64,000 bases of DNA, taken from IMG/VR virus record IMGVR_UViG_3300005466_000026, positions 21,775-85,774 of that record, one strand, 5' to 3'. The position numbers and the translations under genes are program-made. The DNA comes from a virus. This document shows positions 6,002 to 36,227 of this stretch, in pieces (the first letter of the stretch is position 1; each line of letters begins with the position of its first letter). A model generated the notes under the pieces. The model was given only the letters and a program-made list of their open reading frames with translations. It made no database searches and was not told the origin of the DNA.

Positions 6002-6003
6002 GG

Positions 6004-7505: not shown

Positions 7506-7506
7506 C

Positions 7507-8491: not shown

Positions 8492-8514
8492 GAGTCTAAC
8501 CCTCTAAGGTGTGG

Positions 8515-8543: not shown

Positions 8544-8553
8544 TCTGTTCAGA

Positions 8554-10871: not shown

Positions 10872-11092
10872 GTCGTAGTACTCCCTTGAGAGTTGCCCCC
10901 GGTCAGCGCGACCGGGGGTGTGAGGATGGCTCACTCTGCTGACTTCGTCTCCAGCTTGATGAGACGCTGCTCGAGCTCTCTGACGCAGTTCTCCAGACGA
11001 GCAATCGCGTCCCAGGCATCTTCTGGGTCACTCATGCGACATCCGTTTCCCAGCTCAGTCCACTTCTTGGCTCGATCGACTATGCTCATGAT

Positions 11093-11652: not shown

Positions 11653-11857
11653 CTCGCCTCCTTCTTCTAGCGTAGCTGCACTTGGGCGACGTCCTCTTGT
11701 AGACGTCCCACAGCTTGTTTCGCTCCTGAGTGCAGATCCTGCACTGACGAAAGACGCCGGGCTTGCGTCCGGCGTAGCTCTTGCGCTTCTTCCAGTACGT
11801 GTTCTCGACAGAGAACTCGTGGCCGTAGGGACAGTGAGTGGCTGATCTCTGTCCCAT
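11600..11857 (-). CDS. Cys/His Zn-binding protein (HNH-associated module)
   Basis: THCPYGHEFSVENTY...RQCRIC motif; GGAG RBS. Confidence 0.6.
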   Translation of the reverse strand: MGQRSATHCPYGHEFSVENTYWKKRKSYAGRKPGVFRQCRICTQERNKLWDVYKRTSPKCSYARRRRRDGTDFEVVRGPDHGHAP

Positions 11858-12030
11858 CTAGTCGTTCTCCACCGACTTGAGGACGAGCGACAGGCACAGA
11901 TAGAAGGTGCCTGTCGCCGCGTCGTGAAGGAGCCAGAAGTTAGCCATGCCGATTATGACGCTGAGAAACATCGACGTCTGCGTCGCTGCCCACCAGAGCC
12001 ACGCCAGTCTGTCCTTGACTCTGTTCATGG

Positions 12031-12231
12031 TCAGTCCCTCCTCTCGGGAGCTCGCACGCTCAGCGTGCTGAACACCTCTGTGATCTCGTAGACCCGATAG
12101 TGCCTGCCGGGTCCCCTCTTGCCGTATTCGGCGTGCATCTGCTCGGCCTCTCTTATCGCAGACTCCTTGTCGTCGTGGTAGCCGCAGACCATGCCGCTGG
12201 GAAACGACCTCACCTGATAGTTGATTGACAT
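12031..12231 (-). CDS. hypothetical protein
   Basis: MSINYQVRS start overlapping the upstream stop; GGAGGG RBS. Confidence 0.55.
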   Translation of the reverse strand: MSINYQVRSFPSGMVCGYHDDKESAIREAEQMHAEYGKRGPGRHYRVYEITEVFSTLSVRAPERRD

Positions 12232-12683
12232 CAGTCCCTCCCGAAGCCGACTGGAAGGTCGGCGCTCTCGGCCTCGTCGGCCGCCTGCTTCGCGCTCTCT
12301 ATGTCGATGCCGCACACGTCCTCCAGCTTCTGGCCGAGGGCCGACTGCTGCAGGTTCTCCGGCAGATTGTCCTTCCAGTCGCTGTACTCCTGCTGCACCT
12401 CGAGCAGTCTGTCCAGCGCGGCTGCTGCGTCGCTGGCCGCGTCCGCCCACCGCCTGGAGCGGCTGGCCTCCTTCACTCTCTTGGGCTTGGCGCGACCTAC
12501 GCGACCCAGGAGCGCGTTGATCTTGGCTATGGTGGTGAGCGGCACGGCGGGAGCCGTGGGACTGTCCACGACCTCCGCCAGCAGCAGCATGAGGTCTCGT
12601 CGCTTGGGCATCTTGGACTTGCCCATGTCCTGCGGCACGCTGGCCTTGACGTCGGCGTCCGTCAGCTTGGTGGTGGCTGTCAT
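12231..12683 (-). CDS. conserved hypothetical phage protein
   Basis: EYSDWKDNLPENLQQS..GQKL motif recurrent in phage proteins. Confidence 0.65.
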   Translation of the reverse strand: MTATTKLTDADVKASVPQDMGKSKMPKRRDLMLLLAEVVDSPTAPAVPLTTIAKINALLGRVGRAKPKRVKEASRSRRWADAASDAAAALDRLLEVQQEYSDWKDNLPENLQQSALGQKLEDVCGIDIESAKQAADEAESADLPVGFGRD

Positions 12684-12918
12684 GGCTTAGATCTCCTTCA
12701 AGAGTGTGTCGCGCTGCTGCAGCTTGAAGCGCCGCTCGTCGCGGCGCTGTCGTCCTTGATCTCGCTTGTTGAATGGCTCCTCGTGCTTGACGTACGACGG
12801 AAGGCTGTTCGCCTTCAGCGGGTTCCAGCTGAAGAAGTCGCCGATCCACGTCAGGCGCTTCCTCTTCTTGAGGATGAACCTGCGACGTCCACTTCTAAAG
12901 ATGTTGCTCTTCACGGTC

Positions 12919-13671
12919 TCACCTCTTTCCCAGAAGGAACCCGCCGCCGCTGCCTCCGCGCGAGGCACCGCCGACCTGCCGGTTGAGGCTGACGCTGCCG
13001 CCAGCCGCGTAGCCGTGCGACGCCGCTGCTCCCATGTGGACGGTCGAGCGCCGACCCTTGCCCAAGTTCGGGAAGAACACCGCGACCTGCCGGTCGACCA
13101 GCGACTTCTCCTGCTGGTAGAGAGCGGGCAGGTTCTCTGGATTGCCCTTCGCGTTGAACTTCGGCTGAGCCGCCTGCTCCTGCTGCTTTCGCAGCTCGCC
13201 GATGCGCTCGGTCAGACGAACGAAGCAGCCGCGCTTGAAGTCCGTCCGCTGGCCCTCGGTCGCGCCGTTCTCGCGCTTCCACTGGCTGGACAGACGCTGC
13301 GTCGTGTTCACCAGATACTCCATCATCTCGCGGCACATGACGATGTTGTGCTTCCGCCCGACCAGCGTCCAGTTCTTGTTGCCCATGAGGATGGGACGCA
13401 CCATGTACAGACGACAGACAGCCGACGCGAGATGCTTGCGAGCGGGCGAGATGGACCAGCCGTCGTTGAACTCGTCCTTCTCGATGCCGCTCTGCTCCTC
13501 GACGCTGAGCTGCGCCTCTTCCAGTCCGTACTGAGCCATCATCTCCGCGGCCTTGGCCGCGAACGCTGCGGCCTCCGCTTCGTTGTTCGTGCCCTCGGCC
13601 TTTGCCTTCAGGGCGCGGATCACGCGAAGGACCTTGTCCAGCCGTGACTGCTGCTCTTGACTTGTCGTCAT
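12919..13671 (-). CDS. DUF2786-domain protein
   Basis: LDKVLRVIRALKAKAEGTNNEAEAAAFAAKAAEMMAQYGL N-terminus; C-terminal GYAAGGSVSLNRQV. Confidence 0.8.
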   Translation of the reverse strand: MTTSQEQQSRLDKVLRVIRALKAKAEGTNNEAEAAAFAAKAAEMMAQYGLEEAQLSVEEQSGIEKDEFNDGWSISPARKHLASAVCRLYMVRPILMGNKNWTLVGRKHNIVMCREMMEYLVNTTQRLSSQWKRENGATEGQRTDFKRGCFVRLTERIGELRKQQEQAAQPKFNAKGNPENLPALYQQEKSLVDRQVAVFFPNLGKGRRSTVHMGAAASHGYAAGGSVSLNRQVGGASRGGSGGGFLLGKR

Positions 13672-18849: not shown

Positions 18850-19808
18850 GTCTCCGCCTCCCACGCGCGGTCTATCAGGTGATGCTTCTCGTCGCTCGGG
18901 TTCCACTCGTAGAGTGTAGCGACCCACTCCTGCATCTTCTCCCACTCGTGACGATTGGCTTCTTCCTGAAACTTCGGGAAGTACTCTCTGGCGCCGAGAG
19001 GACACAGAGCGATCTTGACGACGTACAAGTTACCCTGCGTCGGCTTGAAGTCGTACAGACTGCGGATGAGCGCGGGCGGCTCTCCGAACTTCGGATCGCA
19101 CACGCTGGCCTCTAGAACCCACAGAGGACCGACTCTTCTGAACCACGTCTCGATGTGCATCTGCGTGAATACGTTGTTGATCACGTCGTCGGTCATCACC
19201 CACGGAGCCAGCGACTCGTGCTGCCCGCCGTCCTCAGGAGTACCGATGACTCTCTTGTCGTCGAACGGTGGTTTAGAGTACGCGTCCACCGACTCTACGC
19301 TGGTGTCGCTGTTCCAGACCTCGCTCATCCTGCGAGCCTCCTCCGCAGTCAGCCGAGGCGCGACGATGATCTTCTTCTCTCGCTCCGGCAGCACCGCGCC
19401 GCGCGAGATCATCTCGGCCTCGATCAGCGTGGCGTAGCGCCGCAGGTCCCGGAGGCAGGCTAGAACGCTGCCGTCCTTGCCGCTCGGGTCGTCGTGTATC
19501 TTCTCGAAGACGTCCTCCTCGCTCAGCTTCTGCACCATCCACTCGGCCAGCTCGTGAGACAGCGTGTACTCCTTGTCCGGGTCCGTAGCTACGTCCTGAA
19601 GGTCCTCTCGGCTGAAGCTCTCCGGCCACGGCACGGAGGCCATCATGTTCAGCAGTCGGTCCATGTTCCTGCGAAACATGAACCACGCGCTTCGTCCACC
19701 GGCCATCTTCCAGCTTCCCTGATAGGTGGCCTCCTTCTCCCTGAGCAGCATGACGTCGCTGTCGGCGACGCGCTGCAGATGCTCCAGATGCTTCATGTCG
19801 TGGCTCAT
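18846..19808 (-). CDS. nucleotide-modification-associated domain 1 (Nmad1/DUF1599-like) protein
   Basis: LREKEATYQGSWK..GG...RRNMDRL...LRDLRRYATLIE pattern; context next to PolA and TS. Confidence 0.65.
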   Translation of the reverse strand: MSHDMKHLEHLQRVADSDVMLLREKEATYQGSWKMAGGRSAWFMFRRNMDRLLNMMASVPWPESFSREDLQDVATDPDKEYTLSHELAEWMVQKLSEEDVFEKIHDDPSGKDGSVLACLRDLRRYATLIEAEMISRGAVLPEREKKIIVAPRLTAEEARRMSEVWNSDTSVESVDAYSKPPFDDKRVIGTPEDGGQHESLAPWVMTDDVINNVFTQMHIETWFRRVGPLWVLEASVCDPKFGEPPALIRSLYDFKPTQGNLYVVKIALCPLGAREYFPKFQEEANRHEWEKMQEWVATLYEWNPSDEKHHLIDRAWEAET

Positions 19809-20311
19809 GATATCTTCACTCCCTTCATCCACTCGTCGACCTTGACGTACTGATACAGCTCGTCCGCCATCTTGAGTGCGATCTCTCTGGTGTCGCGCAT
19901 GGGTATTGCGGCGTACTGATTACCCATCATGAACTCGTGAAAGCAGAACTCGTACATCTCCAGCAGGTCGCAGATCTTGAACCGCTTCCACTCGTCCTCT
20001 CGCATCTGCGGCAGCTCGATCTGCTGATGACCCAGACCCAGTCTCTCGGCCTCGTTGACAGCCGCGCCGTAGCCCTCGACTCGGTGCTTGCCGCCGAACG
20101 GAACGTCGCCGGCGAACTGCTCTCCCATGTCGTGATGCAGGCAGTAGTAGAGAACCTCCGCGCGAGGAATACCGAACACCTCGCAGTAGATCTGCGCGAC
20201 GCGACCCTGATGCTCGATCACGTTCGGCTTTCGCAGAGTCGGCCAAGTGTGCCATCGCGCCACCTGACCGGCTAGATGCCTTGATCTGTAGACTTGATCT
20301 CTAGTAACCAT
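19805..20311 (-). CDS. HD-domain nucleotidase (YfbR-like)
   Basis: VARWH...NVIEH...LHHDMGEQFAGDVP...KICDLLE. Confidence 0.85.
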   Translation of the reverse strand: MVTRDQVYRSRHLAGQVARWHTWPTLRKPNVIEHQGRVAQIYCEVFGIPRAEVLYYCLHHDMGEQFAGDVPFGGKHRVEGYGAAVNEAERLGLGHQQIELPQMREDEWKRFKICDLLEMYEFCFHEFMMGNQYAAIPMRDTREIALKMADELYQYVKVDEWMKGVKIS

Positions 20312-21463
20312 TCACATCCTCCTCGTCATCCACTCGGTGCACGCCACGCGCCAGTCCTCTGACTGGATCTCGTTGGCTGCAGCCACCGCTCTTATCTTCT
20401 GGCCGTCTCTCCACAGACGGTGCGACCGAACAACCGGCTGAGCAACCTCGCAGAACCAGTCGTTCTCGCAATGTCTCAGAGGTACGTCGCTCTCTGTTCG
20501 GTAGCACTCGTCGTGCCACGACATGAACTCGATGACGTCCTCGTCGGCCTTCTCTCCGACCGTGAATACCGGGCGCGTCTTCAGCCGAAGAGAGAAGTAC
20601 CTGTCGTCGTGCAGGGCGCCGACTATGCTGCTCTCCTCCTTGGCCATTCGCTTGGTCATAACGCCGAGCATCGTCTCGTACATGTGAAAGTTGTTCGAGA
20701 GAACGTACAGATCACCCATCGCCACGCCGACGCGAGCAGCCAGATACTCCTGCAGAAAGCTGAAGTGCACCGAGTTCGCGCCGTAGAGTCCCCAGACGAT
20801 GTCGTTACTGCGGCAGCACACCGTCATGTCCAGAACTCTGTTCCCCTTAGATATGACCACGCCGTCCGGCCAGTGATCTGGACCGTCTCCGCGCACTCTG
20901 AGATAGATGTGCGTGTTGCACGGTCTGTCCTTCCACTCGCCGGTGAGGTCCAGAGCGCCGACCTCCTGCTCGCCGACGTTGCCGTTACCCAGACTAACGG
21001 GCAGCGTGACGCTGGAGCAGTCCCACATCTGGATGACGCACTGACGCGTCCCCGGGTCCTTGATCAGCCGATCCACGACCGCTCCCAGCTGATCAAGTCC
21101 GAAGCGGAAGCGCCATCGGTGTCCGTACGCTCCGTGGATCTGACCCCCGGCCTCCCAGTTCGCGCTCCCGCTGGCGCTCTCGGCGAACCGCTGGCCGAAG
21201 TCCGTCACGTAGTGGTTCAGCGTCTCGGCGTCGTCCCTGCCAGCCAGCATCCAGATGGCCTCCACGACGTGAAAGAATGGATTGGCATCTCTCACCTTGC
21301 TGAAGACCACGCGCTCCCACGGTCTCTTGAGGCGCGTGACGACGGGACCGGGGGCGACTAGGCAGGGACCCGCCCGAGTCTTCTCGAGCAGGCCGGAGTT
21401 GATTAGCAGGTGCACTCCCTTCGGGAGTGCCGCCGCTGAGTTCGTGGTGTCGATGACGTGCAT
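20312..21463 (-). CDS. thymidylate synthase homolog, probable dUMP hydroxymethylase
   Basis: RDANPFFH..EAIWMLAG, GAYGHRWR, DPGTRQCV, catalytic PCN, RSNDIVWGLYGAN (Asn at the dUMP/dCMP specificity position), NNFHMY. Confidence 0.9.
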   Translation of the reverse strand: MHVIDTTNSAAALPKGVHLLINSGLLEKTRAGPCLVAPGPVVTRLKRPWERVVFSKVRDANPFFHVVEAIWMLAGRDDAETLNHYVTDFGQRFAESASGSANWEAGGQIHGAYGHRWRFRFGLDQLGAVVDRLIKDPGTRQCVIQMWDCSSVTLPVSLGNGNVGEQEVGALDLTGEWKDRPCNTHIYLRVRGDGPDHWPDGVVISKGNRVLDMTVCCRSNDIVWGLYGANSVHFSFLQEYLAARVGVAMGDLYVLSNNFHMYETMLGVMTKRMAKEESSIVGALHDDRYFSLRLKTRPVFTVGEKADEDVIEFMSWHDECYRTESDVPLRHCENDWFCEVAQPVVRSHRLWRDGQKIRAVAAANEIQSEDWRVACTEWMTRRM

Positions 21464-21479: not shown

Positions 21480-21758
21480 TCAGAACGGTATCTCGTCGTC
21501 GTCCACCTCGGTGCGGCGTTTGCCGCCTCCGAAGGACGGCTTGTCGTCGCCGCTGCCGCTGCGCTCTGCGCGCTCCTTCGGCTCGAACAGCATGATAACT
21601 ATCTTGTTCTCCTTCTTGGGGTCCGGGACGGGGACGCTGTCCAGGTAGATAGTGATCTGTCCCTTGTCGTTCTGGTGAGCCTGTCCTACTCGGTGCCACC
21701 AGACACCGTCCTCGTTGTACTTAGGTCTCGGAGTCATCGCGTCGTATCTCTTCGGCAT
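21480..21758 (-). CDS. small protein with SSB-like acidic tail
   Basis: W.RVG.A...G.ITIYLDSVP beta-rich core; ends in DDDEIPF. Confidence 0.65.
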   Translation of the reverse strand: MPKRYDAMTPRPKYNEDGVWWHRVGQAHQNDKGQITIYLDSVPVPDPKKENKIVIMLFEPKERAERSGSGDDKPSFGGGKRRTEVDDDEIPF

Positions 21759-22200
21759 GTGGCTGTCCCTTGAGATAGAGTTCTTCCAGCAGTATCGCCG
21801 CCAGACCCGCGCACTCTGGATCGTTGTACCAGCGGCACAATCCAGAGGGATGAGGTAGCTGCCGCCATGTGCATCCGTTCATCTGAACAGGGTGAATAAG
21901 TATCTTGGGGAGCTCCAGTGCACTGCGCACCTGCTCCCCGAACACGACAATGGTACGTCCGGCGTAGAGCGAAGGAAAACGCTCCGCCGCTGCCTTGGCC
22001 ACCGGCCTGCTCCACGTTCTGGAGTTGATCAGGTTGAGCCGCTCGAAGCCGTCCATGTATCCCTTTCGCGTGACCTGCGGCTGGCGCGTCTGCAGAAGCC
22101 TCCAGAGACGGTAGCCGCTGCTCCCGGACGGGAACGGAGCGAGCGCGTACCTGGGATCCGCCGACAGCGGATTGTTCATTCCCAGCAGTACGGCCCTCAC
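21721..22200 (-). CDS. uracil-DNA glycosylase superfamily protein
   Basis: VLLGMN, SGYRLW, LNL, VVFGEQV and LPHPSGLCRWYN; GTGA-coupled start. Confidence 0.7.
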   Translation of the reverse strand: MRAVLLGMNNPLSADPRYALAPFPSGSSGYRLWRLLQTRQPQVTRKGYMDGFERLNLINSRTWSRPVAKAAAERFPSLYAGRTIVVFGEQVRSALELPKILIHPVQMNGCTWRQLPHPSGLCRWYNDPECAGLAAILLEELYLKGQPHAEEIRRDDSET

Positions 22201-22745
22201 ACCAGATTGAGCCACCGAAACACCTTCGCGAACACCTGCTCGCGGGATCCTAAAAAGCATTCCACCTTCTCCTCTTGAAAGTCGTAGTAGTGTCTGCGAC
22301 TCTTTCTGTGCAGCGCCTCGATAGTCTTCTCCTGGATCTTGTGACCGCGCTCACGAACGGCCTTGACGCAGTCCTCCAGAGGCTCGTCTATCAGGGCGAC
22401 CGCTATCGGTAGTCCGGCGTCCCGAAGATCGAGCAGGTTCTGTGGCTTGTCGGTGAAGTTCTTTCCCTCGTAGAGCACGTTGCATCCGAGCTCCAGAGCG
22501 TGGATCCTCATCAGTTCGTACGCCAGCGGTAGACTAGGCAGCGTGTCCAGTCCGCCGTTCGCTATCTCGTAGTGTCCGGGAACGTACAGATGCTTCTCGT
22601 TGATGTTGTTGTGAGTCAGGATGTATCCGGCAGGCTTCTGTCTGCCGGGATACTCCAGCTTGCGGCTCACCGGATAGAAGGACATGATCCTGCGGACCAG
22701 ATGCGACTTGCCCGCGCCGTTCGTTCCCAGGAGACTGATTATCAT
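22197..22745 (-). CDS. P-loop kinase, 5-hmdU DNA kinase / nucleotide kinase-like
   Basis: Walker A GTNGAGKS; GHYE..NGGLDTL and VLYEG motifs typical of modification-associated P-loop kinases. Confidence 0.75.
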   Translation of the reverse strand: MIISLLGTNGAGKSHLVRRIMSFYPVSRKLEYPGRQKPAGYILTHNNINEKHLYVPGHYEIANGGLDTLPSLPLAYELMRIHALELGCNVLYEGKNFTDKPQNLLDLRDAGLPIAVALIDEPLEDCVKAVRERGHKIQEKTIEALHRKSRRHYYDFQEEKVECFLGSREQVFAKVFRWLNLV

Positions 22746-23119
22746 GAGTGCTGATCCAGCTGACTGATCTCGTGCATGTTCGCCAGCGCGAACTCTCGAC
22801 GGTCCTTCTTGTCCATGTCGTAGCACATCAGCAGCCACTGAGGAGTCTCGTACCACTCGCTGGTTCCCCACCGCACGCTGATGGGATTAACTGTTCGCCA
22901 GCTGAACGAGCCGCGATAGTTGACGTAGCTGAAGCGAAGAGTCTGCGTCGGCCGAGCCTCGTCCTGATGCATCTCCAGTATGCGAGCCAGCGCGGACAGA
23001 TGATTGGTCGCCGAGGTGATCACCTCTCGAGCTCCCGTGTAGGACCATGCCGGATGCTCGCGACATAGCCTCTCGATGCTGGCGGCTAGATCTCTCAGGC
23101 TATGCTTCTGCGCTGGCAT
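22742..23119 (-). CDS. WYL-domain protein
   Basis: LRFSYVNYRG....RTVNP......G......QWLL.CYD.DK.DRREF. Confidence 0.75.
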   Translation of the reverse strand: MPAQKHSLRDLAASIERLCREHPAWSYTGAREVITSATNHLSALARILEMHQDEARPTQTLRFSYVNYRGSFSWRTVNPISVRWGTSEWYETPQWLLMCYDMDKKDRREFALANMHEISQLDQHS

Positions 23120-24179
23120 CGTCGCCTCCTCTGGGTCCCTGATAGGCTGGCACCGGCTCGCGATCCTTCCACGGCAGACGCACCACCTTGTCGCGCTGAC
23201 CATGCGAGAGAGCCTCCTGGATGTCTGCCGCCGTCTGCGCGTCGGGCTTGTGCAGCTTGCCCTGACCCATCAGGTCCGGAAGCAGGCCGACGCGATAGCT
23301 GCGATGATTGCACCCTCGGCACGGCGTGAAGTCGCGCTCGCCGCGTATCAGCTTCTCCCTGGCGGCTCCCATCGCGTCGCCCTGCCACAGCTCACCGATG
23401 TTGGTCTCGTTCGTGTTGCCCACGAAGTACGGACTGTCCCACGTGTTGCAGCACAGAGGAACGTTGCCGTCCCAGTGAATGGCGATCTGCCTGAACGGAT
23501 GATGACACCGCTTGCCTGCCATACTGTCGTCGGGCGCGAAGGCGAGGCCAGCGTAGTTGAACACCTTGCCGTGATTGCCAATCTTCTTGTCGGCCGCCTG
23601 CGACGCGAGATCCCGTATCTTCACCAGCGTCCTCGTGCCCGGTCTTCGGCGCTTGTGCGGGTTCCCGCGAATGTCCCGCGGATAGTCGTAGTAGGTGAAG
23701 CCAAGAGGATGCTTGACGCCCGATCGCAGCTTGCCCTTCTCCTCGATGGCCGCGATGACCTTCTCCACGAACTTCACGTTCTCGTAGTCGTCCAGCCCGA
23801 GGACGCTGACGCCAGCGTCGAACAGCGCTGTCACGTTCACCACCGGACCCGGCTTCCTGAGTAGTCCCCCGGCGTTGGTCAGCATCGTGATGTGCGCCTT
23901 CGGCAGACACTCGCGAGTGGCCGCCATCATCCCCACGTAGTCCGGATGCATGGTGGGCTCACCGCGCATGGCGAAGCCGACGCGACAGTTCCAGCCGAGA
24001 GCTCTCACGTCCGTGAGCGCCTTGACCAGCGTCTCCTTCTTCATGAACTCGTATCCCTTGCCCTGCTTCTCCTGTATCGCGGAGACCGCGCAGAAAGGAC
24101 AGTTTAGATTACAGCCGCGCGTCAGCTCCAGCGTGACGTTGAACGGGGGTTCCTGAGTACGGTATCTTCGGCGCGTCAT
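23100..24179 (-). CDS. radical SAM enzyme with SPASM/Twitch domain
   Basis: CNLNCPFC (CxxxCxxC), GEPTMHP, LTNAG; C-terminal CHHPF..IAIHWDGNVPLCC..VGN...PCRGC. Confidence 0.9.
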   Translation of the reverse strand: MTRRRYRTQEPPFNVTLELTRGCNLNCPFCAVSAIQEKQGKGYEFMKKETLVKALTDVRALGWNCRVGFAMRGEPTMHPDYVGMMAATRECLPKAHITMLTNAGGLLRKPGPVVNVTALFDAGVSVLGLDDYENVKFVEKVIAAIEEKGKLRSGVKHPLGFTYYDYPRDIRGNPHKRRRPGTRTLVKIRDLASQAADKKIGNHGKVFNYAGLAFAPDDSMAGKRCHHPFRQIAIHWDGNVPLCCNTWDSPYFVGNTNETNIGELWQGDAMGAAREKLIRGERDFTPCRGCNHRSYRVGLLPDLMGQGKLHKPDAQTAADIQEALSHGQRDKVVRLPWKDREPVPAYQGPRGGDDASAEA

Positions 24180-25126
24180 AGGTTCTTCTCCAGTCTGTTG
24201 TAGGCCTCTAGGACCTTGTCCTTCAGATCTCGCTTCTCGCGAGCAGCCTTCAGCCACCATCGGTCCTGCTGCTCCTTCAGTATCTCTGCCCGTCTGGACA
24301 TCCTGCGCTGAACGGAGGCCGCGTTGCTGACCAGGAAGTCTCCTGGGTCATAGCCTGCCTTGCGCAGCGTGTAGCCCGCCTCCTCCTGGAACACCATAGG
24401 AAGTCCGCCGCTGAGCATCTCGTAGAAGCGGTTGGGAGGCGAGTGGAAGTTGCTGTGCGACTTGGCGTCCTCGAGATAGAGGCCGAGGCCGTGCCGTCCC
24501 AGCTCGGAGTGCAGATCCTCTATCTTCTTGACGTGTCGCACGTTGGGTCCGTTGTACTTCTGCTCGAACCGACTTGTCGGCGAGGAGATGGTTATGGGCA
24601 GCGACGGACTGTTGAAGAACTTGTCGAACGCCTTGGTTCGGCCGGCTCGGAAGCTTCCGTAGTAGAAGAGGTCTCCGGCGTCCTTCTTATTCAGAGGCGG
24701 CTTCTCCTCCTCGAACCCCAGAGCGTTCCAGTTTATCAGCGAGCTGAGAGTCGTGAGCTTGCTCTCCCTCTCGCAGGTCGTCCAGAACTCCAGGTGCGAC
24801 TTACCCGCCTTGCGTCGGTCGACGAACGCCTTGCGGAACGGCGACGTAGCGTCGCCGTCGTTGATGGGCGGAACTATGGTGTAGTCCTGCTGTATCCAGA
24901 CGATGCGCCTGACGCCGCGTATGGCGTGCGACAGCGGCTCTAGATGCTTGCAGAAGGCGTATGCCCCGTTCACTATGAAGAGGACGTCCGCCGTCTTGTA
25001 GAGCTCAATGGTCTCGTCGTCCACCAGCGGCAGGTCCAGCGTCTTGCTGAGAAAGAACGCCGCCTTGACCGACGCGACCATCGACTTCTCGCTGCACGCT
25101 ATGAAGCTGAATATGGCTGCCTTCAC
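24176..25126 (-). CDS. DNA beta-glucosyltransferase-like (T4 BGT/GT63-like) glycosyltransferase
   Basis: Colinear matches to T4 BGT as recalled: MKAAI/MKIAI, DVLFIVN/DRLIVVN, IVWIQQD/IYYLFTD, DLFYYGSFRAGR/DVIYGGSFRSGQR, NRFYE/LRVWE, FLVSN/FYVNN. Confidence 0.75.
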   Translation of the reverse strand: MKAAIFSFIACSEKSMVASVKAAFFLSKTLDLPLVDDETIELYKTADVLFIVNGAYAFCKHLEPLSHAIRGVRRIVWIQQDYTIVPPINDGDATSPFRKAFVDRRKAGKSHLEFWTTCERESKLTTLSSLINWNALGFEEEKPPLNKKDAGDLFYYGSFRAGRTKAFDKFFNSPSLPITISSPTSRFEQKYNGPNVRHVKKIEDLHSELGRHGLGLYLEDAKSHSNFHSPPNRFYEMLSGGLPMVFQEEAGYTLRKAGYDPGDFLVSNAASVQRRMSRRAEILKEQQDRWWLKAAREKRDLKDKVLEAYNRLEKNL

Positions 25127-25332
25127 GTCTCACCTCTCTGCTTCTGGAAGTCCCTGACTTGGTTAATTATCCTCTGCTTCGCGCCCGAAGCCAAGTTCTG
25201 AATGGCTCTCTGCTGCCAGCACGTGGGATCTCGCGGCGGCAGATGCGAGACGTAGTCTGCGTAGCTGAGAACGTCTCCGTAGTCGGAGTCCGTGTCCCGA
25301 GCGATCTTGAGAAGCGGATAGCTGGTGCTCAT
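25123..25332 (-). CDS. hypothetical protein
   Basis: 69 aa, coupled at both ends. Confidence 0.55.
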   Translation of the reverse strand: MSTSYPLLKIARDTDSDYGDVLSYADYVSHLPPRDPTCWQQRAIQNLASGAKQRIINQVRDFQKQRGET

Positions 25333-25943
25333 CTTCGGTCCATTCTCAGGACGTGCCAGCCTGCCTCGAAGATCGGCACGTCACCCGTGATCTTGAAGCC
25401 GCCGCGACTGATCATGGCCAGGAACTTCTTCCTGTCGTGCTCTGCCGTGTTGCTCTTCAGCACGTACTTGTCGCCGAAGCGTATCGTGCAGATGATGGAC
25501 CTCTTCGCGAGCTTCATGAAGCCCCTCATGGCCGCCTGCATGGAGGGCTCGTCGATGAGGTCCAGGAACCGCACCGCCACGATCACGTCGGAGGGTGGCA
25601 AGCCCTCCAGCTTTCTGGCGTCGCCGACCTGCAGGACGTAGGACGGCGGCACCTTCTTGTTCTTCAGCTTCCCCTTAGCTATGGCGAGCATCTGCTCCGA
25701 GGAGTCTACGCCCGTAACGGTGGCCACGCTCAGCTGATGATACAGATAGAAGAACCTGCCGGTTCCCACCGGGCAATCGATCACGGTCTGCGGCCTCAGC
25801 TCGGTGAGCATGTCCTCGACCGCCGCGTTCTCCTCGCCCCATCGTATCTGCTTCTTGCGCTTGGCCTCGTAGCCGCTCGCCATCTTACCGCGATACTTTC
25901 TCGCGGTCCTGTCTCCCAGATTGAATGCCGCAGATGGTCTCAT
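25329..25943 (-). CDS. class I SAM-dependent methyltransferase
   Basis: VIDCPVGTGRF, VTGVDSSEQML, VGDA. Confidence 0.85.
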   Translation of the reverse strand: MRPSAAFNLGDRTARKYRGKMASGYEAKRKKQIRWGEENAAVEDMLTELRPQTVIDCPVGTGRFFYLYHQLSVATVTGVDSSEQMLAIAKGKLKNKKVPPSYVLQVGDARKLEGLPPSDVIVAVRFLDLIDEPSMQAAMRGFMKLAKRSIICTIRFGDKYVLKSNTAEHDRKKFLAMISRGGFKITGDVPIFEAGWHVLRMDRR

Positions 25944-26138
25944 CTATCTCCTCCCCTTGCTGTCGAAGACTACTCTTCCGGTTGATCTCTCGAAGCACGT
26001 GACCGCCGCGCTGCTGTTTCTAGCCATCGCGCCCACGAACTCCTTGCAGGCTTCCTTGCTGTCGAACTTGACCTGCTTCGGCTCCTCGCATCCGAGGAAG
26101 CTGCAGAACGTTATGAGTACGAAGAATGGACTTTCCAT
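25944..26138 (-). CDS. small Cys-containing hypothetical protein
   Basis: TAGGAG RBS; hydrophobic N-terminus; FDSKEAC...C. Confidence 0.55.
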   Translation of the reverse strand: MESPFFVLITFCSFLGCEEPKQVKFDSKEACKEFVGAMARNSSAAVTCFERSTGRVVFDSKGRR

Positions 26139-26917
26139 GTCACTTCTCCTAATTGCTGCTTCATCTTCATGCCTTTATTCCACGGTTCTCGTCCTTTCAT
26201 TGCGGCACTCATTTTTGCACGAGACTCAAGAGTGTGCTTCTTACCTTTTCTCTTCGACGGTTTTCCTTTCTGTGCTGCGCTCATCTTAGCTCGAGACTCA
26301 GCTGTATGTTTCCGACCTGCTATCCAGGGAATTTGACCCTTATGAACATCACTCATCTTTTTTCGGTGCTCAGGATTTTCCCACGCCTTCTTGATTAAAT
26401 CTTTCAATATGATTGAGCCTCTCTCACGATAATCAGGATCTTTCCATCTTTCTTTTGACTCTCTTCTCATTTTATTCGCTTGGCGCTCTCGATACTCTGG
26501 ATCTTTCCACTGCTCTTTTAATTGCCTTGTCATAGAAGCACTCCTACGCTCACGAAATTCAGAGGACTCCCATAGCTTCACGACTGCTAGTCTCATTGCT
26601 TCACGTGAAGCTTCTCTGGAGATAGCGTATTGCCAGCTAGAGCATGGTCTGCCTTGAGTCATTCTACTGAGTGCACTCACCATCTGATGATGTGCTCTGC
26701 CATCAAGAATAAATTTAGTCAAGAGCCAGTGTGCCAGAAAATGTTCTCGATAGGTCAGTGAGACCAAGTTCTCTGAGCTGTTATACCAGCTCGGATCTCC
26801 GCCGAAACTTCTAGGGTTTCGGTGATGTCTCTCGTAACGTACTCCTGGTTCGCGCTCGCGGCTCGCGGCGCGATCCATGATCTGCGTGTACCAGAGACGA
26901 TACTTCTCAGTGCTCAC
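26111..26917 (-). mobile_element. HNH homing endonuclease with NUMOD3 repeats
   Basis: YERHH.NPRSFGG....NLVSLTYREHFLAHWLL; repeats RKHTAESRAKMSAA and KKHTLESRAKMSAA; visibly AT-richer than flanks. Confidence 0.85.
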
Positions 26918-27789
26918 GCGAACACTCCTCTTGGTCTGCCCTCGCCGTTCCTGACTCTCTCGTACTTGTCGAACTCGCAGAGCGTGTGCTCGACGTCTCG
27001 CATCTCCCACTTGGGCCACTGCCTCGGCCAGTTGCCCGGACTGCAACTGGCCGCGAGGATCAGCTGCATCTCCTCCAGCATCTTGGGCACCCTGACGCTC
27101 TTATCCTTCTTGTTCCTGCCGTGTATCCGGTTCAGTCCGCGCCTCGCCCCCGGTCCCACGTTGCACCAGCTCATGATGTCGTTCGCGTCGCAGAGAAGGT
27201 TGGTGTGCCGCAGGTCCGTGACTATCTCGTACGAGTGAAATGTGCCGAGCCACGGCTGCATCTTGAACCAGAGCCAAGCCGTCTGCAGAGACATCTTCTC
27301 CTTAATCATCTGCTTGGCAGCGTCCCTCCATCCGCTCTCCTCTCTGAAGTTCTTCAGGATCTCCAGGATCCCGTCCAGCTTGGTGAAGCCGGGGGGAGAG
27401 GTTATGATGTACGCTCCGGTGACGTAGGGGCCGTCACCGCAGATCGCCTTGACGTCCTTCTTCATGCGTCGCAGGTCTCCGGTCTGCAGGAACACCGCGA
27501 AGGCGTTGTTCTTGTCGAAGTCCAGGTGATTGAAGATGGCCTCTCCCGTGCTGATCCTGTTGAACATGCGGAACACGACCGTGGCCAGTAGCACGTCCGG
27601 CGAGTCTCTCATCTCCTCCCTCACGTTGCGTCGGAACCAGTCAGTGGTCTTGTCCAGCTCCCGGAAGACGTTCGTGAACCTGTACTTCTGCAGGATCGGG
27701 TCCCTCGTCAGGGACGACTTCCCCTCCAGACGGTTCAGGTACACCTGATGTCGCTGCCTCGCGTAGTTGAAGAAGGACTGCATCGTCAT
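26914..27789 (-). CDS. aGPT-Pplase1 family protein (5-hmdU DNA kinase helical-domain family)
   Basis: TRDPILQKYRFTNVFRELDKTT, FRMFN, TGAYI, F.SYEIVTDL, GPGARRGL, DVEHTLCEFDKY. Confidence 0.9.
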   Translation of the reverse strand: MTMQSFFNYARQRHQVYLNRLEGKSSLTRDPILQKYRFTNVFRELDKTTDWFRRNVREEMRDSPDVLLATVVFRMFNRISTGEAIFNHLDFDKNNAFAVFLQTGDLRRMKKDVKAICGDGPYVTGAYIITSPPGFTKLDGILEILKNFREESGWRDAAKQMIKEKMSLQTAWLWFKMQPWLGTFHSYEIVTDLRHTNLLCDANDIMSWCNVGPGARRGLNRIHGRNKKDKSVRVPKMLEEMQLILAASCSPGNWPRQWPKWEMRDVEHTLCEFDKYERVRNGEGRPRGVFA

Positions 27790-28528
27790 GGCTCATCTCC
27801 AGTACATCTTTGAGTGGCTTAGAGTTCCAGAACTCGGCTACGTAGCGCTCCTCCTCGCCGAAGTCCTCCTGCCGCAGGATCCAGGACAGGTAGCTCCGGT
27901 CTATCTCCCTGACGTGCCTCCACTCCATGCCCTTGTACTTGCCGAAGCCGATGATCCTCTGCAGATACGGAGTGTTGGTCAGCTGCACCAGCTCGTCCGC
28001 CGTCTTGAGCGTGAGCATTCGCAGGACCAGCGTGGCGGTCGTCAGCGCGTCGGGCATCGCTCGGTGGGGAGGCCTGATGCAGTAGGGCACCGCGAGGTCC
28101 AGCCAGTATCGCAGCACCTGATTGGAGTGCCTCGGCGCGTCCGGCCACAGATGACGCGACGCCCTCCAGGTGCAGATCACCTTGACGCCCGGAGCCTCCT
28201 GCGTCAGCTTGTAGCCCGACTGCTCCAGCATCCGCAGATCGAAGTCCGCGTAGTGCATCGCCACGTACTGCGATGTCTTGATCTCCGTGAGGATGGACTT
28301 GTTGCGAGCCATCAGCTTGGCCATCGTGGGCGCGTGCTTCAGCTGATCGTCCGTGATGTGATGCACGGCTCTAGCTATCACGTTCATCGAACAGGTCGGC
28401 TTCACCAGCTGATCCCTTCCGAGTATCATCTGCTGAGTCTCTGCGTCGACGGTCGCCACGGCCAGCTCGCACACCTGATCCTGCTCGCTGTCTCCCGTGG
28501 TCTCCGTGTCGACTACCGCTATCCGCAT
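27641..28528 (-). CDS. DEDDh 3'-5' exonuclease (ExoX-like)
   Basis: VDTETTG, HYADFD, PHRAMPDA; C-terminal FGKYKG...YLSW. Confidence 0.9.
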   Translation of the reverse strand: MRIAVVDTETTGDSEQDQVCELAVATVDAETQQMILGRDQLVKPTCSMNVIARAVHHITDDQLKHAPTMAKLMARNKSILTEIKTSQYVAMHYADFDLRMLEQSGYKLTQEAPGVKVICTWRASRHLWPDAPRHSNQVLRYWLDLAVPYCIRPPHRAMPDALTTATLVLRMLTLKTADELVQLTNTPYLQRIIGFGKYKGMEWRHVREIDRSYLSWILRQEDFGEEERYVAEFWNSKPLKDVLEMSHDDAVLLQLREAATSGVPEPSGGEVVPDEGPDPAEVQVHERLPGAGQDH

Positions 28529-31074: not shown

Positions 31075-31338
31075 CTACGGCCAGTTCTTGTGAACGCAGC
31101 GTCCGCAGCCGTCCTCGCGACTAACTATCTCCACCGAGTTGACGGCCTCGTAGTCGCAGAGATCTACGATTATTCTCTCCAGCTCCTCCGGCTCCAGCTT
31201 CGCGAATAGCTGCTGCATGGCCAAGTCCCTCAGTCCCTCGTTTGAGGTGTACGGCTGGTCGCCTCCAGACTGTCGCCAGATGCGACAGACGTAGTACGGC
31301 GTCTGCACTCGTATCATGTCCTCGAACAGCATCGTCAT
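31075..31338 (-). CDS. hypothetical protein
   Basis: 87 aa, coupled to primase. Confidence 0.55.
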   Translation of the reverse strand: MTMLFEDMIRVQTPYYVCRIWRQSGGDQPYTSNEGLRDLAMQQLFAKLEPEELERIIVDLCDYEAVNSVEIVSREDGCGRCVHKNWP

Positions 31339-32933
31339 ATGTCCTGCTCCTCCCTGTCTATCTTCGGTGCGGTCAGCTCCATCAGTCCCTCTATCTTATC
31401 CGACGGAACGTACCAAGTCCTGATCCCGCGCTCGTTGTTGATATTGATGAAGTGCGCTCCGCCGCCCATCGCTCTTATCTTGGTGAGTATCTGGCCGCGC
31501 TTCAGGTCTCGAACACCCTCCTGCTGCAGATACTTCTCGAACGCCTTGATAGTGAAGTAGTATCGCTGCTCCTTTATCGACTCCCACGGTCTGCCCTCCA
31601 TCAGGTCCTCTACCCGCTCCGCTCTGGCGCGGTTCGTGAGGAACTCCTCCAGATGCTCCTGAAACTTCCCCCCGGTTCCCGCGTCCGGGGGTGCCTCTAT
31701 GAGGACGAGGCGGTCCATCGCCTCGGACAGCACCGACAGCCAAGCGTCCTGCTTCATCGTCTTGAACGACTTGTTCACGCGGTTCATGCAGGCGCGATGG
31801 AAGCGCTGATACATCTGCAGGTCCTCGGTCGTGAGCTCGAGACGCTCCCCGAGGACGTCCGCGAACCATATCGGCGGGTCCGTGTCCAGCTTGCTGAGGC
31901 CGGTTATCACCGGGAACTCTCCGCCCTTGCCTATGCCGAACTTGCGCGTGCGACACAGCACGGAGTCGCAGAAGGAGCGCATCGGCTCCTCCTTGCAGGT
32001 GTACTCGTAGTCCTTCTTGCTGACGGACCTGATGATGCCGCTCACCTCGTCGGTGGGCAGCGGAGGCTTGAAGAACATCTGGTTCGCTCGCTCCAGCCGC
32101 GCCTTCCAGTTCTCCGGATCTGCTCGCTTGTAGTACAGCGCCATCATGAACAGAGTGCGCTTGCGACCGTCCTTCTGGATCCCGGCGGAGGTGAGATGCT
32201 GCAGGCACGGCGGTCCGTTGGCGAAGTCGTCCTGAGCCTCGTTCTTGCCGCTGGCCTTGCCCTTGCCGGTTCCGTTGTAGGTCTTTCGCCTGGAGCGGCA
32301 CAGCTCCGCGAACTCGGCGACGGTCGTCTGCTTCTTCTCCGCGAACGACACGAACTCGGCCATAGTCATCTCGGACCCGGTCTTCTTGAGGCCGTGCTGG
32401 TTCTGCAGCTTGCCTCCGAACGTGTCCCCGAAGTAGGGCATCACCATCCAGCTTCCGAGATCATTGCGCTCCACCAGGACGCGGGTCTGCTTGGGAAATA
32501 TCTCGCAGTCGGCCATGCCCAGAGAAGCCGCAGCGTCTCTCAGCACGCCCTGAACGTCCGCAGCAGGCTCCGGCTCCTTGAGAAACAGGAACAGATGCAG
32601 ACCACCGGACTTGGACCTGCAAGGAACGAGGGGATACTTGGCTGTCTCGACGCGCTTGATCATCTCTATCAGGTCCACGTCGTACTCGTCGAAGTCTATG
32701 CTGCCCCACGAGCAGGAGTTGTCCTCGCGTATCGGTATCACGCCGAGAGGCCGCTTGCCCGCGACGTGCTGCTCCCACAGCTCGGGAGTCACCGGCTGGC
32801 GGAGCGTCTTGGCCGTTCGCTTGATGTTCCACTTCAGCCCCTCTGGATCCTTCTCCGGGACGCCGTGCGTGCCAGACGCACCGGCGAACCCAGCGAACAG
32901 ATCCATCAGTCGCTGCGTCGCGTCTCTTGACAT
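31335..32933 (-). CDS. archaeo-eukaryotic-type primase (AEP) with C-terminal domain
   Basis: WEQHVAGK.PLG, WGSIDFD, SKSGGLHLFLF, EIFPKQ; PPCL and PPLP.DEV PriCT-like region. Confidence 0.85.
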   Translation of the reverse strand: MSRDATQRLMDLFAGFAGASGTHGVPEKDPEGLKWNIKRTAKTLRQPVTPELWEQHVAGKRPLGVIPIREDNSCSWGSIDFDEYDVDLIEMIKRVETAKYPLVPCRSKSGGLHLFLFLKEPEPAADVQGVLRDAAASLGMADCEIFPKQTRVLVERNDLGSWMVMPYFGDTFGGKLQNQHGLKKTGSEMTMAEFVSFAEKKQTTVAEFAELCRSRRKTYNGTGKGKASGKNEAQDDFANGPPCLQHLTSAGIQKDGRKRTLFMMALYYKRADPENWKARLERANQMFFKPPLPTDEVSGIIRSVSKKDYEYTCKEEPMRSFCDSVLCRTRKFGIGKGGEFPVITGLSKLDTDPPIWFADVLGERLELTTEDLQMYQRFHRACMNRVNKSFKTMKQDAWLSVLSEAMDRLVLIEAPPDAGTGGKFQEHLEEFLTNRARAERVEDLMEGRPWESIKEQRYYFTIKAFEKYLQQEGVRDLKRGQILTKIRAMGGGAHFININNERGIRTWYVPSDKIEGLMELTAPKIDREEQDI

Positions 32934-34616: not shown

Positions 34617-36227
34617 ATGTTCAAGTCGAAGACAGAGCAGATGAGCCACCAGCGCGAGGCGCTGTCCGTTCGTCTAACCAAGCGACCCAAGCGTCCGTCC
34701 TCGGAGGACGTGATGGCTTGGCTCATGGACAAGGGAACCGGCAAGACGAAGGTGATCCTCGACGAGTGGCAGGATCGCGTCGGCAGAGACGACCTGGAGG
34801 TGCTGGTCGTGGTCGCGCCGAAGGGAGCCTATCGCAACTGGTTCGAGGACAAGAGCGACATCCAGCGAGCCGAGATCAAGGTACATCTGGACGACGCGCT
34901 GCTCAAGAAGATGAGCTGGGCAGCGTGGACCTCCGGCGCAGAGAGCAGACGAAAGAGGGAGTTCCTGCTGAAGCAGAGGGGACCTCGCGCATTCTTCATC
35001 AACATCGAGGCGTTCAGCGGCGGCAGCAAGAAGGCGAAGGGAAAGGCGGAGGTCTACGTCGAGACGCTTCTTCGGTCGGTCCCGAAGGAGAGAGCCATGC
35101 TGGCTGTGGACGAGTCCACCAAGATGAGGGGCGACACGAACAGAACTGCCGCCCTGCAGCGACTGAGAGAGTTCGCGGGAACGCGGCGCATAATGTCCGG
35201 CCTCGTCACCCCCAAGTCGCCGCTGGACTTGTTCAGGCAGTTCTCGTTTCTAGACTGGCGCATCCTCGGCATCGAGTCGCCGATAGAGTTCCGCAACCGA
35301 TACGCCGTCATCGAGAAGCAGTGCTTCGTGCCGAACGCGATGCTTCGCGGCAAGCTGGCTCGCGTGTATCGCGGCGCACCGACTGACGTGCAGCGCATGA
35401 CGCGCACCATGCTTCTGGACGAGCTGGAGAAGTATCGCGTCTACGTGCAGATGGTGCCGATCATCAAGAGCTACAAGAACCTTGACGAGCTGCACGCCAA
35501 GATCGCGCCGTACTCCTATCGCGTCCTGAAGGAGGAGTGTCTAGACCTGGAGCCGAAGGTGTTCATGACTCGAGACGTCGAGCTGACAGAGGAGCAGACG
35601 GAGCTCTACGAGTCCCTGCGCAAGACGGCCACCGCCGAGCTGGACGGAGAGTTTGTGGTGGCCAAGGCCGTCGTCTCTCGGATGGTGAGGATGCATCAGA
35701 TACTGTGCGGTCACGTGGGGGCTGAGACTGGGAGGGTGCTGCCCGTCAAGTCTAACAGGGTCAGCGAGCTGCTGGAGGTTCTGGAGGATCACCGAGGCAA
35801 GGCCATCATCTGGTCGTGCTGGAGACCAGAGATCGACAGCATCGTGCAGGCCATACGCAAGGAGTACGACGACGAGGACATCGTCGCGCAGTTTCACGGC
35901 GGGAACCCCAAGGAGCGAGTCGAGGAGGAGAAGCGGTTCTTGTCCGATCCCAGGTGCCGGTTCATGGTCAGCTCGCAGGCGACCGGGGGCTTCGGGAACA
36001 CCTGGACGGTTGCTGATCTGGTTGTCTACTCGTCGAACAGCTACGATCTGGAGCTTCGCGACCAGTCCGAGGATCGGGCGCATCGCAAGGGACAGACGAA
36101 GAGAGTGACCTACGTGGACCTCGTGGCTCGCGGCACCGTGGACGAGAAGATAATATCCTGCCTCCGCCGCAAGATAGATCTAGCGGCGCAGATCACAGGC
36201 GACAACTACAGGGAGTGGCTCGTGTGA
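34617..36227 (+). CDS. SNF2-family (superfamily 2) helicase
   Basis: MDKGTGKTK, VVVAPK, VDEST, MSG..TP, GGFGNTWT, RDQSEDRAHRKGQ. Confidence 0.9.
   Translation: MFKSKTEQMSHQREALSVRLTKRPKRPSSEDVMAWLMDKGTGKTKVILDEWQDRVGRDDLEVLVVVAPKGAYRNWFEDKSDIQRAEIKVHLDDALLKKMSWAAWTSGAESRRKREFLLKQRGPRAFFINIEAFSGGSKKAKGKAEVYVETLLRSVPKERAMLAVDESTKMRGDTNRTAALQRLREFAGTRRIMSGLVTPKSPLDLFRQFSFLDWRILGIESPIEFRNRYAVIEKQCFVPNAMLRGKLARVYRGAPTDVQRMTRTMLLDELEKYRVYVQMVPIIKSYKNLDELHAKIAPYSYRVLKEECLDLEPKVFMTRDVELTEEQTELYESLRKTATAELDGEFVVAKAVVSRMVRMHQILCGHVGAETGRVLPVKSNRVSELLEVLEDHRGKAIIWSCWRPEIDSIVQAIRKEYDDEDIVAQFHGGNPKERVEEEKRFLSDPRCRFMVSSQATGGFGNTWTVADLVVYSSNSYDLELRDQSEDRAHRKGQTKRVTYVDLVARGTVDEKIISCLRRKIDLAAQITGDNYREWLV

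Follow-up and report, generated by a model that had tools for sequence, protein, structure and literature searches.

The sugars documented on phage DNA sit on derivatives of cytosine, such as the glucosylated 5-hydroxymethylcytosine (5hmC) of the T-even phages, arabinosyl-hydroxycytosine and the glycans of Pyle et al., or on linker-bearing thymidines like those of phage SP-15. A sugar placed directly on 5-hydroxymethyluracil (hmU) is, to our knowledge, found only as base J in kinetoplastids and their relatives, and searches of the literature found no report of glycosylated hmU in virus or phage DNA. The subject here is a gene on the minus strand at 24176-25126 of a 64,000-nucleotide window (positions 21,775 to 85,774 of the IMG/VR virus record IMGVR_UViG_3300005466_000026, which is 85,774 bp long and 99% complete by CheckV), encoding a glycosyltransferase (GT) that resembles the beta-glucosyltransferase (BGT) of phage T4 and lies amongst genes for making and handling hmU. 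The best explanation of the locus is that GT is an enzyme of the T4 BGT lineage that has been recruited to an hmU pathway, and the phage probably carries a sugar-decorated substitute for thymine, something not yet shown chemically in any virus.

T4 BGT presumably belongs to CAZy family GT63, and we take S189, R191, R195, R269 and E272 to be its donor-site residues and Asp100 its catalytic base. It can also glucosylate hmU in DNA oligonucleotides, according to the results given in PMC4111573. Pyle et al. (10.1101/2023.12.21.572611; Cell Rep 2024) describe phage GT-A enzymes and BGT-like GT-B enzymes that put hexose, N-acetylhexosamine, heptose and Kdo on 5hmC, with approximately 28% of the GT-B contigs having a gene of the thymidylate synthase (TS) type nearby; in the passages cited here the types acting on dUMP and on dCMP are not separated and no glycosylation of hmU is shown. 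Glycosyltransferases are also described near one clade of phage thymine dioxygenases, as summarised in 10.1101/2025.08.14.668559 and PMC13229309.

The closest described systems for thymidine hypermodification are the clusters of the Pseudomonas phages PaMx11, M6 and YuA, in which, as presented in PMC5889632 and PMC8989533, a TS-like enzyme, a kinase, an HMUDK_hel protein and an HD-domain protein are encoded in one operon near the polymerase, as they are here. The gp49 of PaMx11 is a 5-hydroxymethyldeoxyuridine (5-hmdU) DNA kinase and its gp46 a glycine:DNA transferase (PMC8989533, Table 1). The enzymes that tailor the base in those clusters, a pyridoxal-phosphate enzyme, a radical S-adenosylmethionine (SAM) enzyme of the spore-photoproduct-lyase type, a flavin adenine dinucleotide (FAD) lyase and an acetyltransferase, are missing from the present phage, and whereas the radical SAM enzyme of M6 is spore-photoproduct-lyase-like, that of the present phage is of the SPASM type.

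The glycosyltransferase and its likeness to T4 BGT

The reading frame of GT is real: it is a 316-residue open reading frame (ORF) that fills exactly 24176-25126 in the program-made list of translated ORFs, its GTG start overlaps the stop of an upstream 69-residue ORF (GTGA) and its own stop codon shares bases with the start codon of the radical SAM gene (ATGA), and therefore GT is part of an operon whose genes are translationally coupled. The strings IVWIQQD, GSFRAGR and RFYE, from which the initial annotation had argued, are indeed in its translation, and WGLYGAN is in the TS-like ORF.

The protein has no match in Pfam (at E 0.01), PHROG or NCBIfam. In a collection clustered at 90% it has 285 relatives at E <= 0.001, all unnamed or called 'hypothetical protein' and none with a precomputed Pfam domain, and in a library clustered at 50% the family profile finds 624 representatives at E <= 0.001, with 536 at <= 1e-10. 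GT can thus be assigned to a large, conserved and uncurated family from uncultured phages. One member of the 50% library, P0269 (784 residues), continues after its GT domain into a tail of approximately 450 residues that has no Pfam match. A tblastn search with GT itself (E 1e-3) against 50,697 phage records found relatives in 7 records; with three family members as queries the only full-length homologues in cultured phages were those of IME392 and EP_H11, two phages of E. coli, which are 26-27% identical to GT, and partial matches came from three Straboviridae phages in five records.

The initial annotation took GT for a BGT-like enzyme, and comparison of profiles bears this out. An alignment of 44 sequences of the GT family (A1) was compared by hhalign with one of 37 sequences of the BGT family (A2), which gave a probability of 94.7-94.9% and an E-value of 4.5e-8 to 6.2e-8 over a significant span of GT residues 147-292 against BGT residues 178-333. 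Within this span the stretch YYGSFRxGR lies on the GSFRxGxR stretch of BGT that holds S189, R191 and R195, and NRFYEML lies on the stretch with R269 and E272, so that the correspondence proposed earlier for GSFRAGR and RFYE is recovered and the five BGT residues S189, R191, R195, R269 and E272 are paired with S158, R160, R163, R233 and E236 of GT. Amongst 35 family members from related loci R160, R233, E236, D81 and D220 are invariant, R163 is kept in 34, and position 158 is occupied by Ser (25) or Ala (10); R191, R269 and E272 of BGT are invariant in A2. It is apparent that the likeness of GT to T4 BGT is more than chance, and Arg160, Arg163 and Arg233 are candidate donor-phosphate residues, to be considered along with Glu236.

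The structural comparison agrees, with the limit that both sides of it are predicted models. The ESM Atlas model of GT has a predicted TM score of 0.82 and superposes on a cluster with 97% PF09198 members at a TM score of 0.79 by query and 0.71 by matched row, with 302 aligned residues covering GT residues 1-310; in the Atlas feature search the PF09198 clusters score 0.96. The predicted fold of GT is accordingly GT-B and superposable on BGT. The other structural neighbours in the Atlas are bacterial glycosyltransferases of PF13524 and PF00534, with TM scores of 0.68-0.77.

The initial annotation had further proposed that GT is colinear with T4 BGT from end to end. This holds for the C-terminal half, at an E-value of approximately 5e-8, and fails for the N-terminal (acceptor) half, which has no significant alignment to BGT: it takes relaxed hhalign settings (mact 0.1) to bring out colinearity there (VNGAYAF over VNxxINFF), and in that alignment BGT Asp100 falls after an 11-residue gap near GT residue 92 and not on Asp81. 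As Asp81 comes after the counterpart of the BGT strand that leads up to Asp100, it seems the likelier equivalent of Asp100, and it is our candidate for the catalytic residue. The likeness is also one that needs family profiles to be seen, the A1 profile against the single T4 BGT sequence giving a probability of only 13%. When GT, by phmmer, and the family profile were searched against the sequences of the PDB, BGT was not found and there were only chance matches (E >= 0.12), and the IME392 homologue likewise found only chance matches.

GT and T4 BGT thus share a predicted GT-B fold, a homologous donor half and the Arg/Arg/Glu donor-site residues, GT has its invariant Asp behind a strand that corresponds to one of BGT, and in both phages the gene lies beside that of a TS-fold hydroxymethylase, as gp42 adjoins b-gt in T4. 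They differ in that identity is about 25% and confined to the C-terminal half, and in that the partner of GT is a hydroxymethylase of the dUMP type whereas that of T4 is of the dCMP type. T4 is also without the HMUDK_hel protein, the kinase, the radical SAM enzyme and the methyltransferase that accompany GT.

The predicted hmU pathway and its linkage to the glycosyltransferase

Four proteins of the operon, all encoded on the minus strand, are homologous to proteins of the PaMx11 cluster. The HMUDK_hel protein (26914..27789, 291 residues) matches Pfam PF18723 at 3.2e-46, with 158 bits against a cut-off of 25, and is 43% identical to gp50. The P-loop kinase (22197..22745, likely start the ATG at 22745) is 37% identical to gp49 over 132 residues (E 4e-20) and can be regarded as a homologue of the 5-hmdU DNA kinase; Pfam gives it weak generic P-loop matches only, and the family is recovered by jackhmmer from either seed. 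The TS-fold enzyme (20312..21463), a predicted dUMP hydroxymethylase, matches Pfam Thymidylat_synt (PF00303) at 2.8e-15 and PHROG 5131 at 1.1e-81 and is 37% identical to gp51 over 356 residues (E 1e-59). Lastly, an HD-domain protein of the YfbR-like 5'-deoxynucleotidase type (19805..20311; Pfam YfbR-like 2.9e-6) is 27% identical to gp52, and probably serves in editing of the nucleotide pool.

The proposal that the TS-fold enzyme belongs to the dUMP-hydroxymethylase type of PaMx11 and M6 is upheld by these matches. The reasoning given for it was that it has Asn where dCMP hydroxymethylases have Asp, and this is correct only in part. When 32 TS-like sequences are aligned by MAFFT, the column of the catalytic Cys148 of T4 gp42 is Cys in 32/32, and the column of its Asp179 is Ala in 28, with Asn one column later in the rows printed; the Asn of the GAN motif, which is identical in PaMx11 gp51, is therefore present, but to bring it directly into the Asp179 column the loop has to be one residue longer. 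The better case for dUMP rests on the homology to the PaMx11/M6 enzyme and on the presence of an hmU DNA kinase. Other possible sources were looked for in the genome. It has no match to the C5 DNA methylase model PF00145, for which 9/14 control genomes were positive, and none to Tet_JBP (PF12851), for which no control genome was positive, so that the sensitivity of the latter search is unproven; this leaves the TS-like enzyme as the only visible source of a hydroxymethyl-pyrimidine.

The amino-acid:DNA transferase, which ordinarily uses up activated hmU, is missing here. A search of the entire 85,774-bp record with PF18724 (ADDT, formerly aGPT-Pplase2, abbreviated AADT below) gives no match, where the PaMx11 control gives 3.3e-29, and tblastn with PaMx11 gp46 has a best E-value of 0.099 in the window and finds nothing in 33 related loci. 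By comparison with PaMx11, the block of AADT, FAD lyase and acetyltransferase is replaced by one of methyltransferase, GT and radical SAM enzyme. The 291-residue neighbour was considered for the role of amino-acid:DNA transferase and rejected, as it belongs to PF18723 and not to PF18724.

How far GT is tied to these genes can be seen from the 33 loci, which come from a scan of IMG/VR and in which genes were counted by tblastn at 1e-4 and by jackhmmer. A TS-like gene is found in 27/33, HMUDK_hel in 26/33, the P-loop kinase in 23/33 (jackhmmer) and the HD gene in 17/33; the radical SAM gene is found in 14/33 and lies directly downstream of GT in 14/14, whilst homologues of a 179-residue protein of the operon are found in 11/33 and the methyltransferase in 10/33. 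Many of the absences lie at contig ends: in all six loci without a TS-like match the contig stops close to GT on the side in question, of the seven that lack HMUDK_hel five end 0.7-1.8 kb upstream of GT, and two (L022 and L024) of the ten without a kinase match are cut next to GT. Six other loci (L023, L026, L027, L030, L032 and L034) have a compact cassette of GT, HMUDK_hel, in some cases a small ORF, and TS, with the HD gene next in three; the one Walker A motif in the printed stretches of those six is in an ORF of L032 that overlaps the TS gene. No homologous P-loop kinase lies within up to 10 kb of the kinase-less cassettes, and thus the acceptor shared by the family cannot need prior phosphorylation, unless the kinase is encoded elsewhere in those genomes.

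In a maximum-likelihood tree of 35 GTs the kinase-less loci form clades of their own. The GT of the window is one of 10 that group together with strong support (100/99) inside a larger set of 13, and in this set the kinase is found in 13/13, the radical SAM gene in all but one and the methyltransferase in 6/13. The candidate catalytic residues are identical in all GT clades.

Of all the linked genes that of HMUDK_hel is the most informative, and it is one that the initial annotation did not use. PaMx11 gp50 and the protein of the window are both HMUDK_hel (PF18723) in current Pfam, whereas gp46 is ADDT; the older name of the family was aGPT-Pplase1, other phage records label such proteins 'aGPT-Pplase1 domain-containing protein', and the Atlas feature score of the window protein to the PF18723 clusters is 0.97. 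These families were reportedly defined by Iyer et al. in 2013. There is no match to the protein in the PDB. Near its C-terminus is a motif, Cys271-Glu272-x-x-Lys275, of which Cys, Glu and Lys are invariant in 29/29 HMUDK_hel proteins and likewise in alignment A3, and many further charged residues are invariant. A weak alignment brings the Cys motif into register with the ILC..K stretch of AADT, and a profile comparison of the two families is not significant (probability 1.1-1.2%). There is also a natural fusion, P0256 (634 residues), in which GT (residues 15-317) is followed by a divergent HMUDK_hel domain (347-599, 1.3e-8), and gp186 of phage SP10 is a kinase fused to an HMUDK_hel-type domain (Lee et al. 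2018, PMC5889632, Table 3). Because it is joined in nature to GT or to the kinase, HMUDK_hel is proposed to be a common subunit for the handling of hmU.

Proposed function and competing explanations

With moderate confidence, we suggest that GT glycosylates hmU in DNA directly and that the sugar-bearing base is tailored later; we infer DNA as the substrate, the hydroxyl of hmU as the acceptor, the partnership with HMUDK_hel and each of the tailoring steps. The TS-fold enzyme would make 5-hmdUMP, the HD nucleotidase would help to exclude thymidine nucleotides, and the polymerase would build hmU into the phage DNA. After replication GT would take a nucleotide-sugar of the host and, with Asp81 as base, transfer the sugar onto the 5-hydroxymethyl oxygen of an hmU flipped out of the duplex, HMUDK_hel being the putative partner that recognises hmU for GT and likewise for the P-loop kinase. 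The base with its sugar is then probably tailored by the coupled radical SAM/SPASM enzyme and by the methyltransferase encoded just upstream, and the kinase may phosphorylate the remaining hmU or the sugar.

A more specific version of this can be offered only tentatively, and we would sooner call it possible than probable. Here HMUDK_hel, a protein widespread in phages, is the subunit that flips out hmU and hands it to either kinase or GT, both of which act in this phage together with the radical SAM enzyme and the methyltransferase to give a tailored glycosyl-hmU, whilst the sister clades make heptosyl- or aminosugar-hmU. The tailored base may be oxidised or rearranged, methylated and possibly phosphorylated.

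Several observations weigh against direct glycosylation of hmU, or against the likeness to BGT on which the proposal leans. Besides the acceptor half that does not align significantly, none of the 44 family members matches the Pfam BGT model PF09198, even with E-values allowed up to 1, and 10 match PF13524, a generic model of GT-B enzymes, so part of the likeness to BGT may be a general GT-B likeness; because of these two results GT is best filed as a BGT-like sister family and not as a member of PF09198. Two loci, L009 and L031, have no HMUDK_hel despite having at least 3.6 kb on both sides of GT. The GT of L031 may be a cytosine-directed offshoot, and its pairing with a C5 methylase means that not all relatives need be uracil-directed. 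The invariant Cys-Glu of HMUDK_hel suggests that this protein is an enzyme in its own right and not a mere recognition subunit. Finally, the kinase is always found in the GT clade of the window, so GT could act on phosphorylated hmU or after another step.

As to L031 itself, the stretch at 3606-7688 of this locus has a long-branch relative of GT, with genes for a C5 cytosine DNA methylase and a P-loop protein and a short gene of the TS-like type as its neighbours.

It is from the last of these points that the most serious alternative follows, which is that GT works downstream of the kinase. The sugar would then go onto the phosphate of 5-phosphomethyl-dU, giving a phosphodiester-linked sugar as in SP-15, or HMUDK_hel, as a Pplase-like Cys enzyme, would first swap the phosphate for a hydroxyl-bearing metabolite that GT then glycosylates. 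We regard this as unlikely, albeit a contender that has to be taken seriously. The distribution of the kinase tracks the GT tree, and the protein shares 37% identity with an established 5-hmdU DNA kinase. The phage lacks an AADT that could consume the product of this kinase, and the conserved Cys motif of HMUDK_hel can be aligned, weakly, with that of AADT. In addition, the thymidines of SP-15, YerA41 and Carin-5 are described as carrying a linker, a phosphate and a sugar, and IME392 and EP_H11 are grouped with these phages by polymerase, in the account of PMC12686479. What argues against it is that at least 8 loci, at five places in the tree, have GT and TS (and mostly HMUDK_hel) with no such kinase within the same distance of up to 10 kb, and that in the kinase-less loci the catalytic residues, Asp81 included, are unchanged. 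The profile comparison of HMUDK_hel with AADT, at a probability of 1.1%, is not significant, and in the lysate experiments of PMC8989533 gp55 of M6, a member of the HMUDK_hel family, is dispensable for glycine transfer, that is, for the formation of glycinyl-thymidine. In addition, GT-B enzymes are not known to use a phosphate monoester as acceptor.

The initial annotation had proposed a convergent synthesis of base J or of a related glycosyl-hmU. An hmU-directed DNA glycosyltransferase is still the best reading, given the PaMx11-type TS enzyme, the kinase and the lack of another source of the base; base J itself is not supported. That the final virion base is exactly beta-D-glucosyl-hydroxymethyluracil, with the kinase, radical SAM enzyme and methyltransferase serving other ends, is distinctly doubtful, and since this is a special case of direct glycosylation its small share of probability lies within that given to the favoured reading. 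In its favour, the nearest relative of known activity is an inverting UDP-glucose transferase whose phosphate- and ribose-binding residues are kept in GT, and the phage has no recognisable sugar-nucleotide genes, so a common donor of the host such as UDP-glucose is expected. Against this stand the radical SAM gene, coupled to GT and its immediate neighbour wherever it occurs, the methyltransferase and kinase of the same operon, and the heptose and amino-sugar genes linked to relatives, by which the donor varies in the family. The constant presence of the kinase in the GT clade of the window, with the radical SAM gene mostly and the methyltransferase often there, points to an end product more elaborate than base J.

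An acceptor other than DNA, be it a nucleotide, a small molecule, a polymer of the host envelope or a protein, with the position in the operon incidental, is highly improbable: the structural neighbours of GT do include the bacterial PF13524 and PF00534 enzymes, and most phage GT contigs are described as having no base-modification neighbour (Pyle et al., 10.1101/2023.12.21.572611), but tight linkage to genes that make or handle hmU recurs in 26-27/33 loci, start and stop codons overlap within the operon, a fusion of GT with HMUDK_hel exists, and the GT gene lies in the replication module near polA, an exonuclease and a helicase.

The favoured reading, glycosylation of hmU in DNA, leaves the sugar to be considered. 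No sugar-nucleotide genes were recognised among ten further ORFs of the window, in the first 23 kb of the genome (by eye from the ORF list) or by tblastn with heptose genes, and hence a donor from the host is expected. In the relatives it is otherwise. A complete set of four genes for NDP-heptose, encoding a PfkB kinase, a SIS isomerase, a cytidylyltransferase-like protein and a HAD phosphatase, is found in 3/33 loci (L030:13218-15610, L032:14742-16938 and L034:8528-10738), 1.3-2.6 kb downstream of the kinase-less cassette of GT, HMUDK_hel and TS. Amongst the 35 GTs it is only those of the same three loci in which Glu219 is replaced by Gln and Ser229 by Cys or Phe, and this suggests heptosylated hmU DNA in these phages. 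A PfkB gene abuts GT in L025. In IME392 a PIG-L de-N-acetylase is encoded 1.1 kb upstream of the GT homologue, with one 344-residue gene between them and a methyltransferase further upstream, and this phage would lend itself to study of the pathway in an amino-sugar form. Such neighbours support both the transfer of a sugar by the family and a variation of that sugar within it.

The order of genes at 4078-13616 of IME392 (L001, MH719082) is methyltransferase, 302-residue protein, BCCT transporter, PIG-L deacetylase, 344-residue protein, GT, HMUDK_hel, AAA_28 P-loop protein, TS-like and HD.

Wider comparison and the remaining genes of the operon

What is predicted here has in common with the base J of kinetoplastids that hmU in DNA carries a sugar on its hydroxymethyl group, but the routes differ. 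In kinetoplastids JBP1/2 hydroxylate thymidine, whereas here hmU is predicted to be made before replication by a TS-fold enzyme and there is no Tet_JBP match; base J is site-specific, whereas the present replacement would be genome-wide. The relatives of JGT are described as GT-A enzymes (10.1101/2023.12.21.572611), whereas by its structural neighbours in the Atlas the present transferase is GT-B. A glycosyltransferase directed to hmU would accordingly be convergent with the kinetoplastid synthesis, in which a JBP dioxygenase is combined with a GT-A enzyme.

The GT-B 'subclass III' of Pyle et al., as it is described there, has a T4-BGT-like architecture and uses unusual sugars from neighbouring HAD, kinase and cytidylyltransferase genes, comparable to those of L030, L032 and L034. 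It acts on 5hmC made by a C5 methylase and a TET-like dioxygenase, whereas the present family is tied to a dUMP hydroxymethylase and HMUDK_hel. The bases of SP-15, YerA41 and Carin-5 are sugar-decorated replacements of thymine too, but have, in the terms of PMC12686479, a pentyl-type linker with phosphate at C5, and these phages are not amongst the 7 records matched by tblastn of GT at E 1e-3.

The present GTs would therefore be a new BGT-like family of probable hmU-DNA glycosyltransferases, as yet a prediction. If it is true, at least 624 sequence clusters from uncultured phages make base-J-like DNA by a route with no relation to that of eukaryotes, and the orphan HMUDK_hel/Pplase1 protein gains a function. 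The enzymes would be useful as reagents for tagging hmU in DNA, and DNA of this kind should be resistant to many nucleases of restriction and CRISPR systems, a point of relevance to work on phages and their hosts.

The remaining genes of the operon are likewise on the minus strand. In order of transcription it begins with an RNase T-type exonuclease (27641-28528), followed by HMUDK_hel, an HNH endonuclease, the methyltransferase, the 69-residue ORF, GT, the radical SAM enzyme, a WYL-domain protein, the kinase, the 179-residue protein, a 92-residue ORF, the TS-fold enzyme and the HD protein, after which come a 328-residue ORF and a family A DNA polymerase. The methyltransferase (25329..25943) is a class I SAM-dependent enzyme of the small-molecule type, with a match to Pfam Methyltransf_25 at 1.7e-10 and matches below cut-off to UbiE-like NCBIfam models. 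The radical SAM enzyme (23100..24179) has a SPASM/twitch domain (Pfam Radical_SAM 1.7e-11, SPASM 5.1e-12), and as to its subtype there are only generic SPASM/twitch NCBIfam matches, all far below cut-off. The 69-residue ORF (25123..25332), which is translationally coupled to the start of GT, has homologues only in L002 and L003, and the same is true of the WYL-domain protein (22742..23203, 153 residues, Pfam WYL 6.5e-5), these two loci being near-identical. WYL domains usually belong to ligand-sensing regulators. The 179-residue protein (21721..22260) falls in PHROG 12275 (1.2e-23), a family of unknown function, and has no Pfam match; the 92-residue ORF lies between its gene and that of the TS-fold enzyme.

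The HNH/NUMOD3 homing endonuclease (26111..27046; Pfam NUMOD3 1.9e-18, PHROG 655 8e-32) is a mobile element and not an enzyme of the pathway. Its ORF is inserted between the genes of the methyltransferase and HMUDK_hel and overlaps the 3' end of the latter by approximately 130 bases, and its TTG start is probably called too far upstream.

The replication module in which GT lies also has an AEP-type primase (AEP-TOTE/PriCT_1) at 31335-32933 on the minus strand and a SNF2-family helicase at 34617-36227 on the plus strand, and in L023, L030, L032 and L034, too, the GT cassette is preceded by a gene for a SNF2 helicase.

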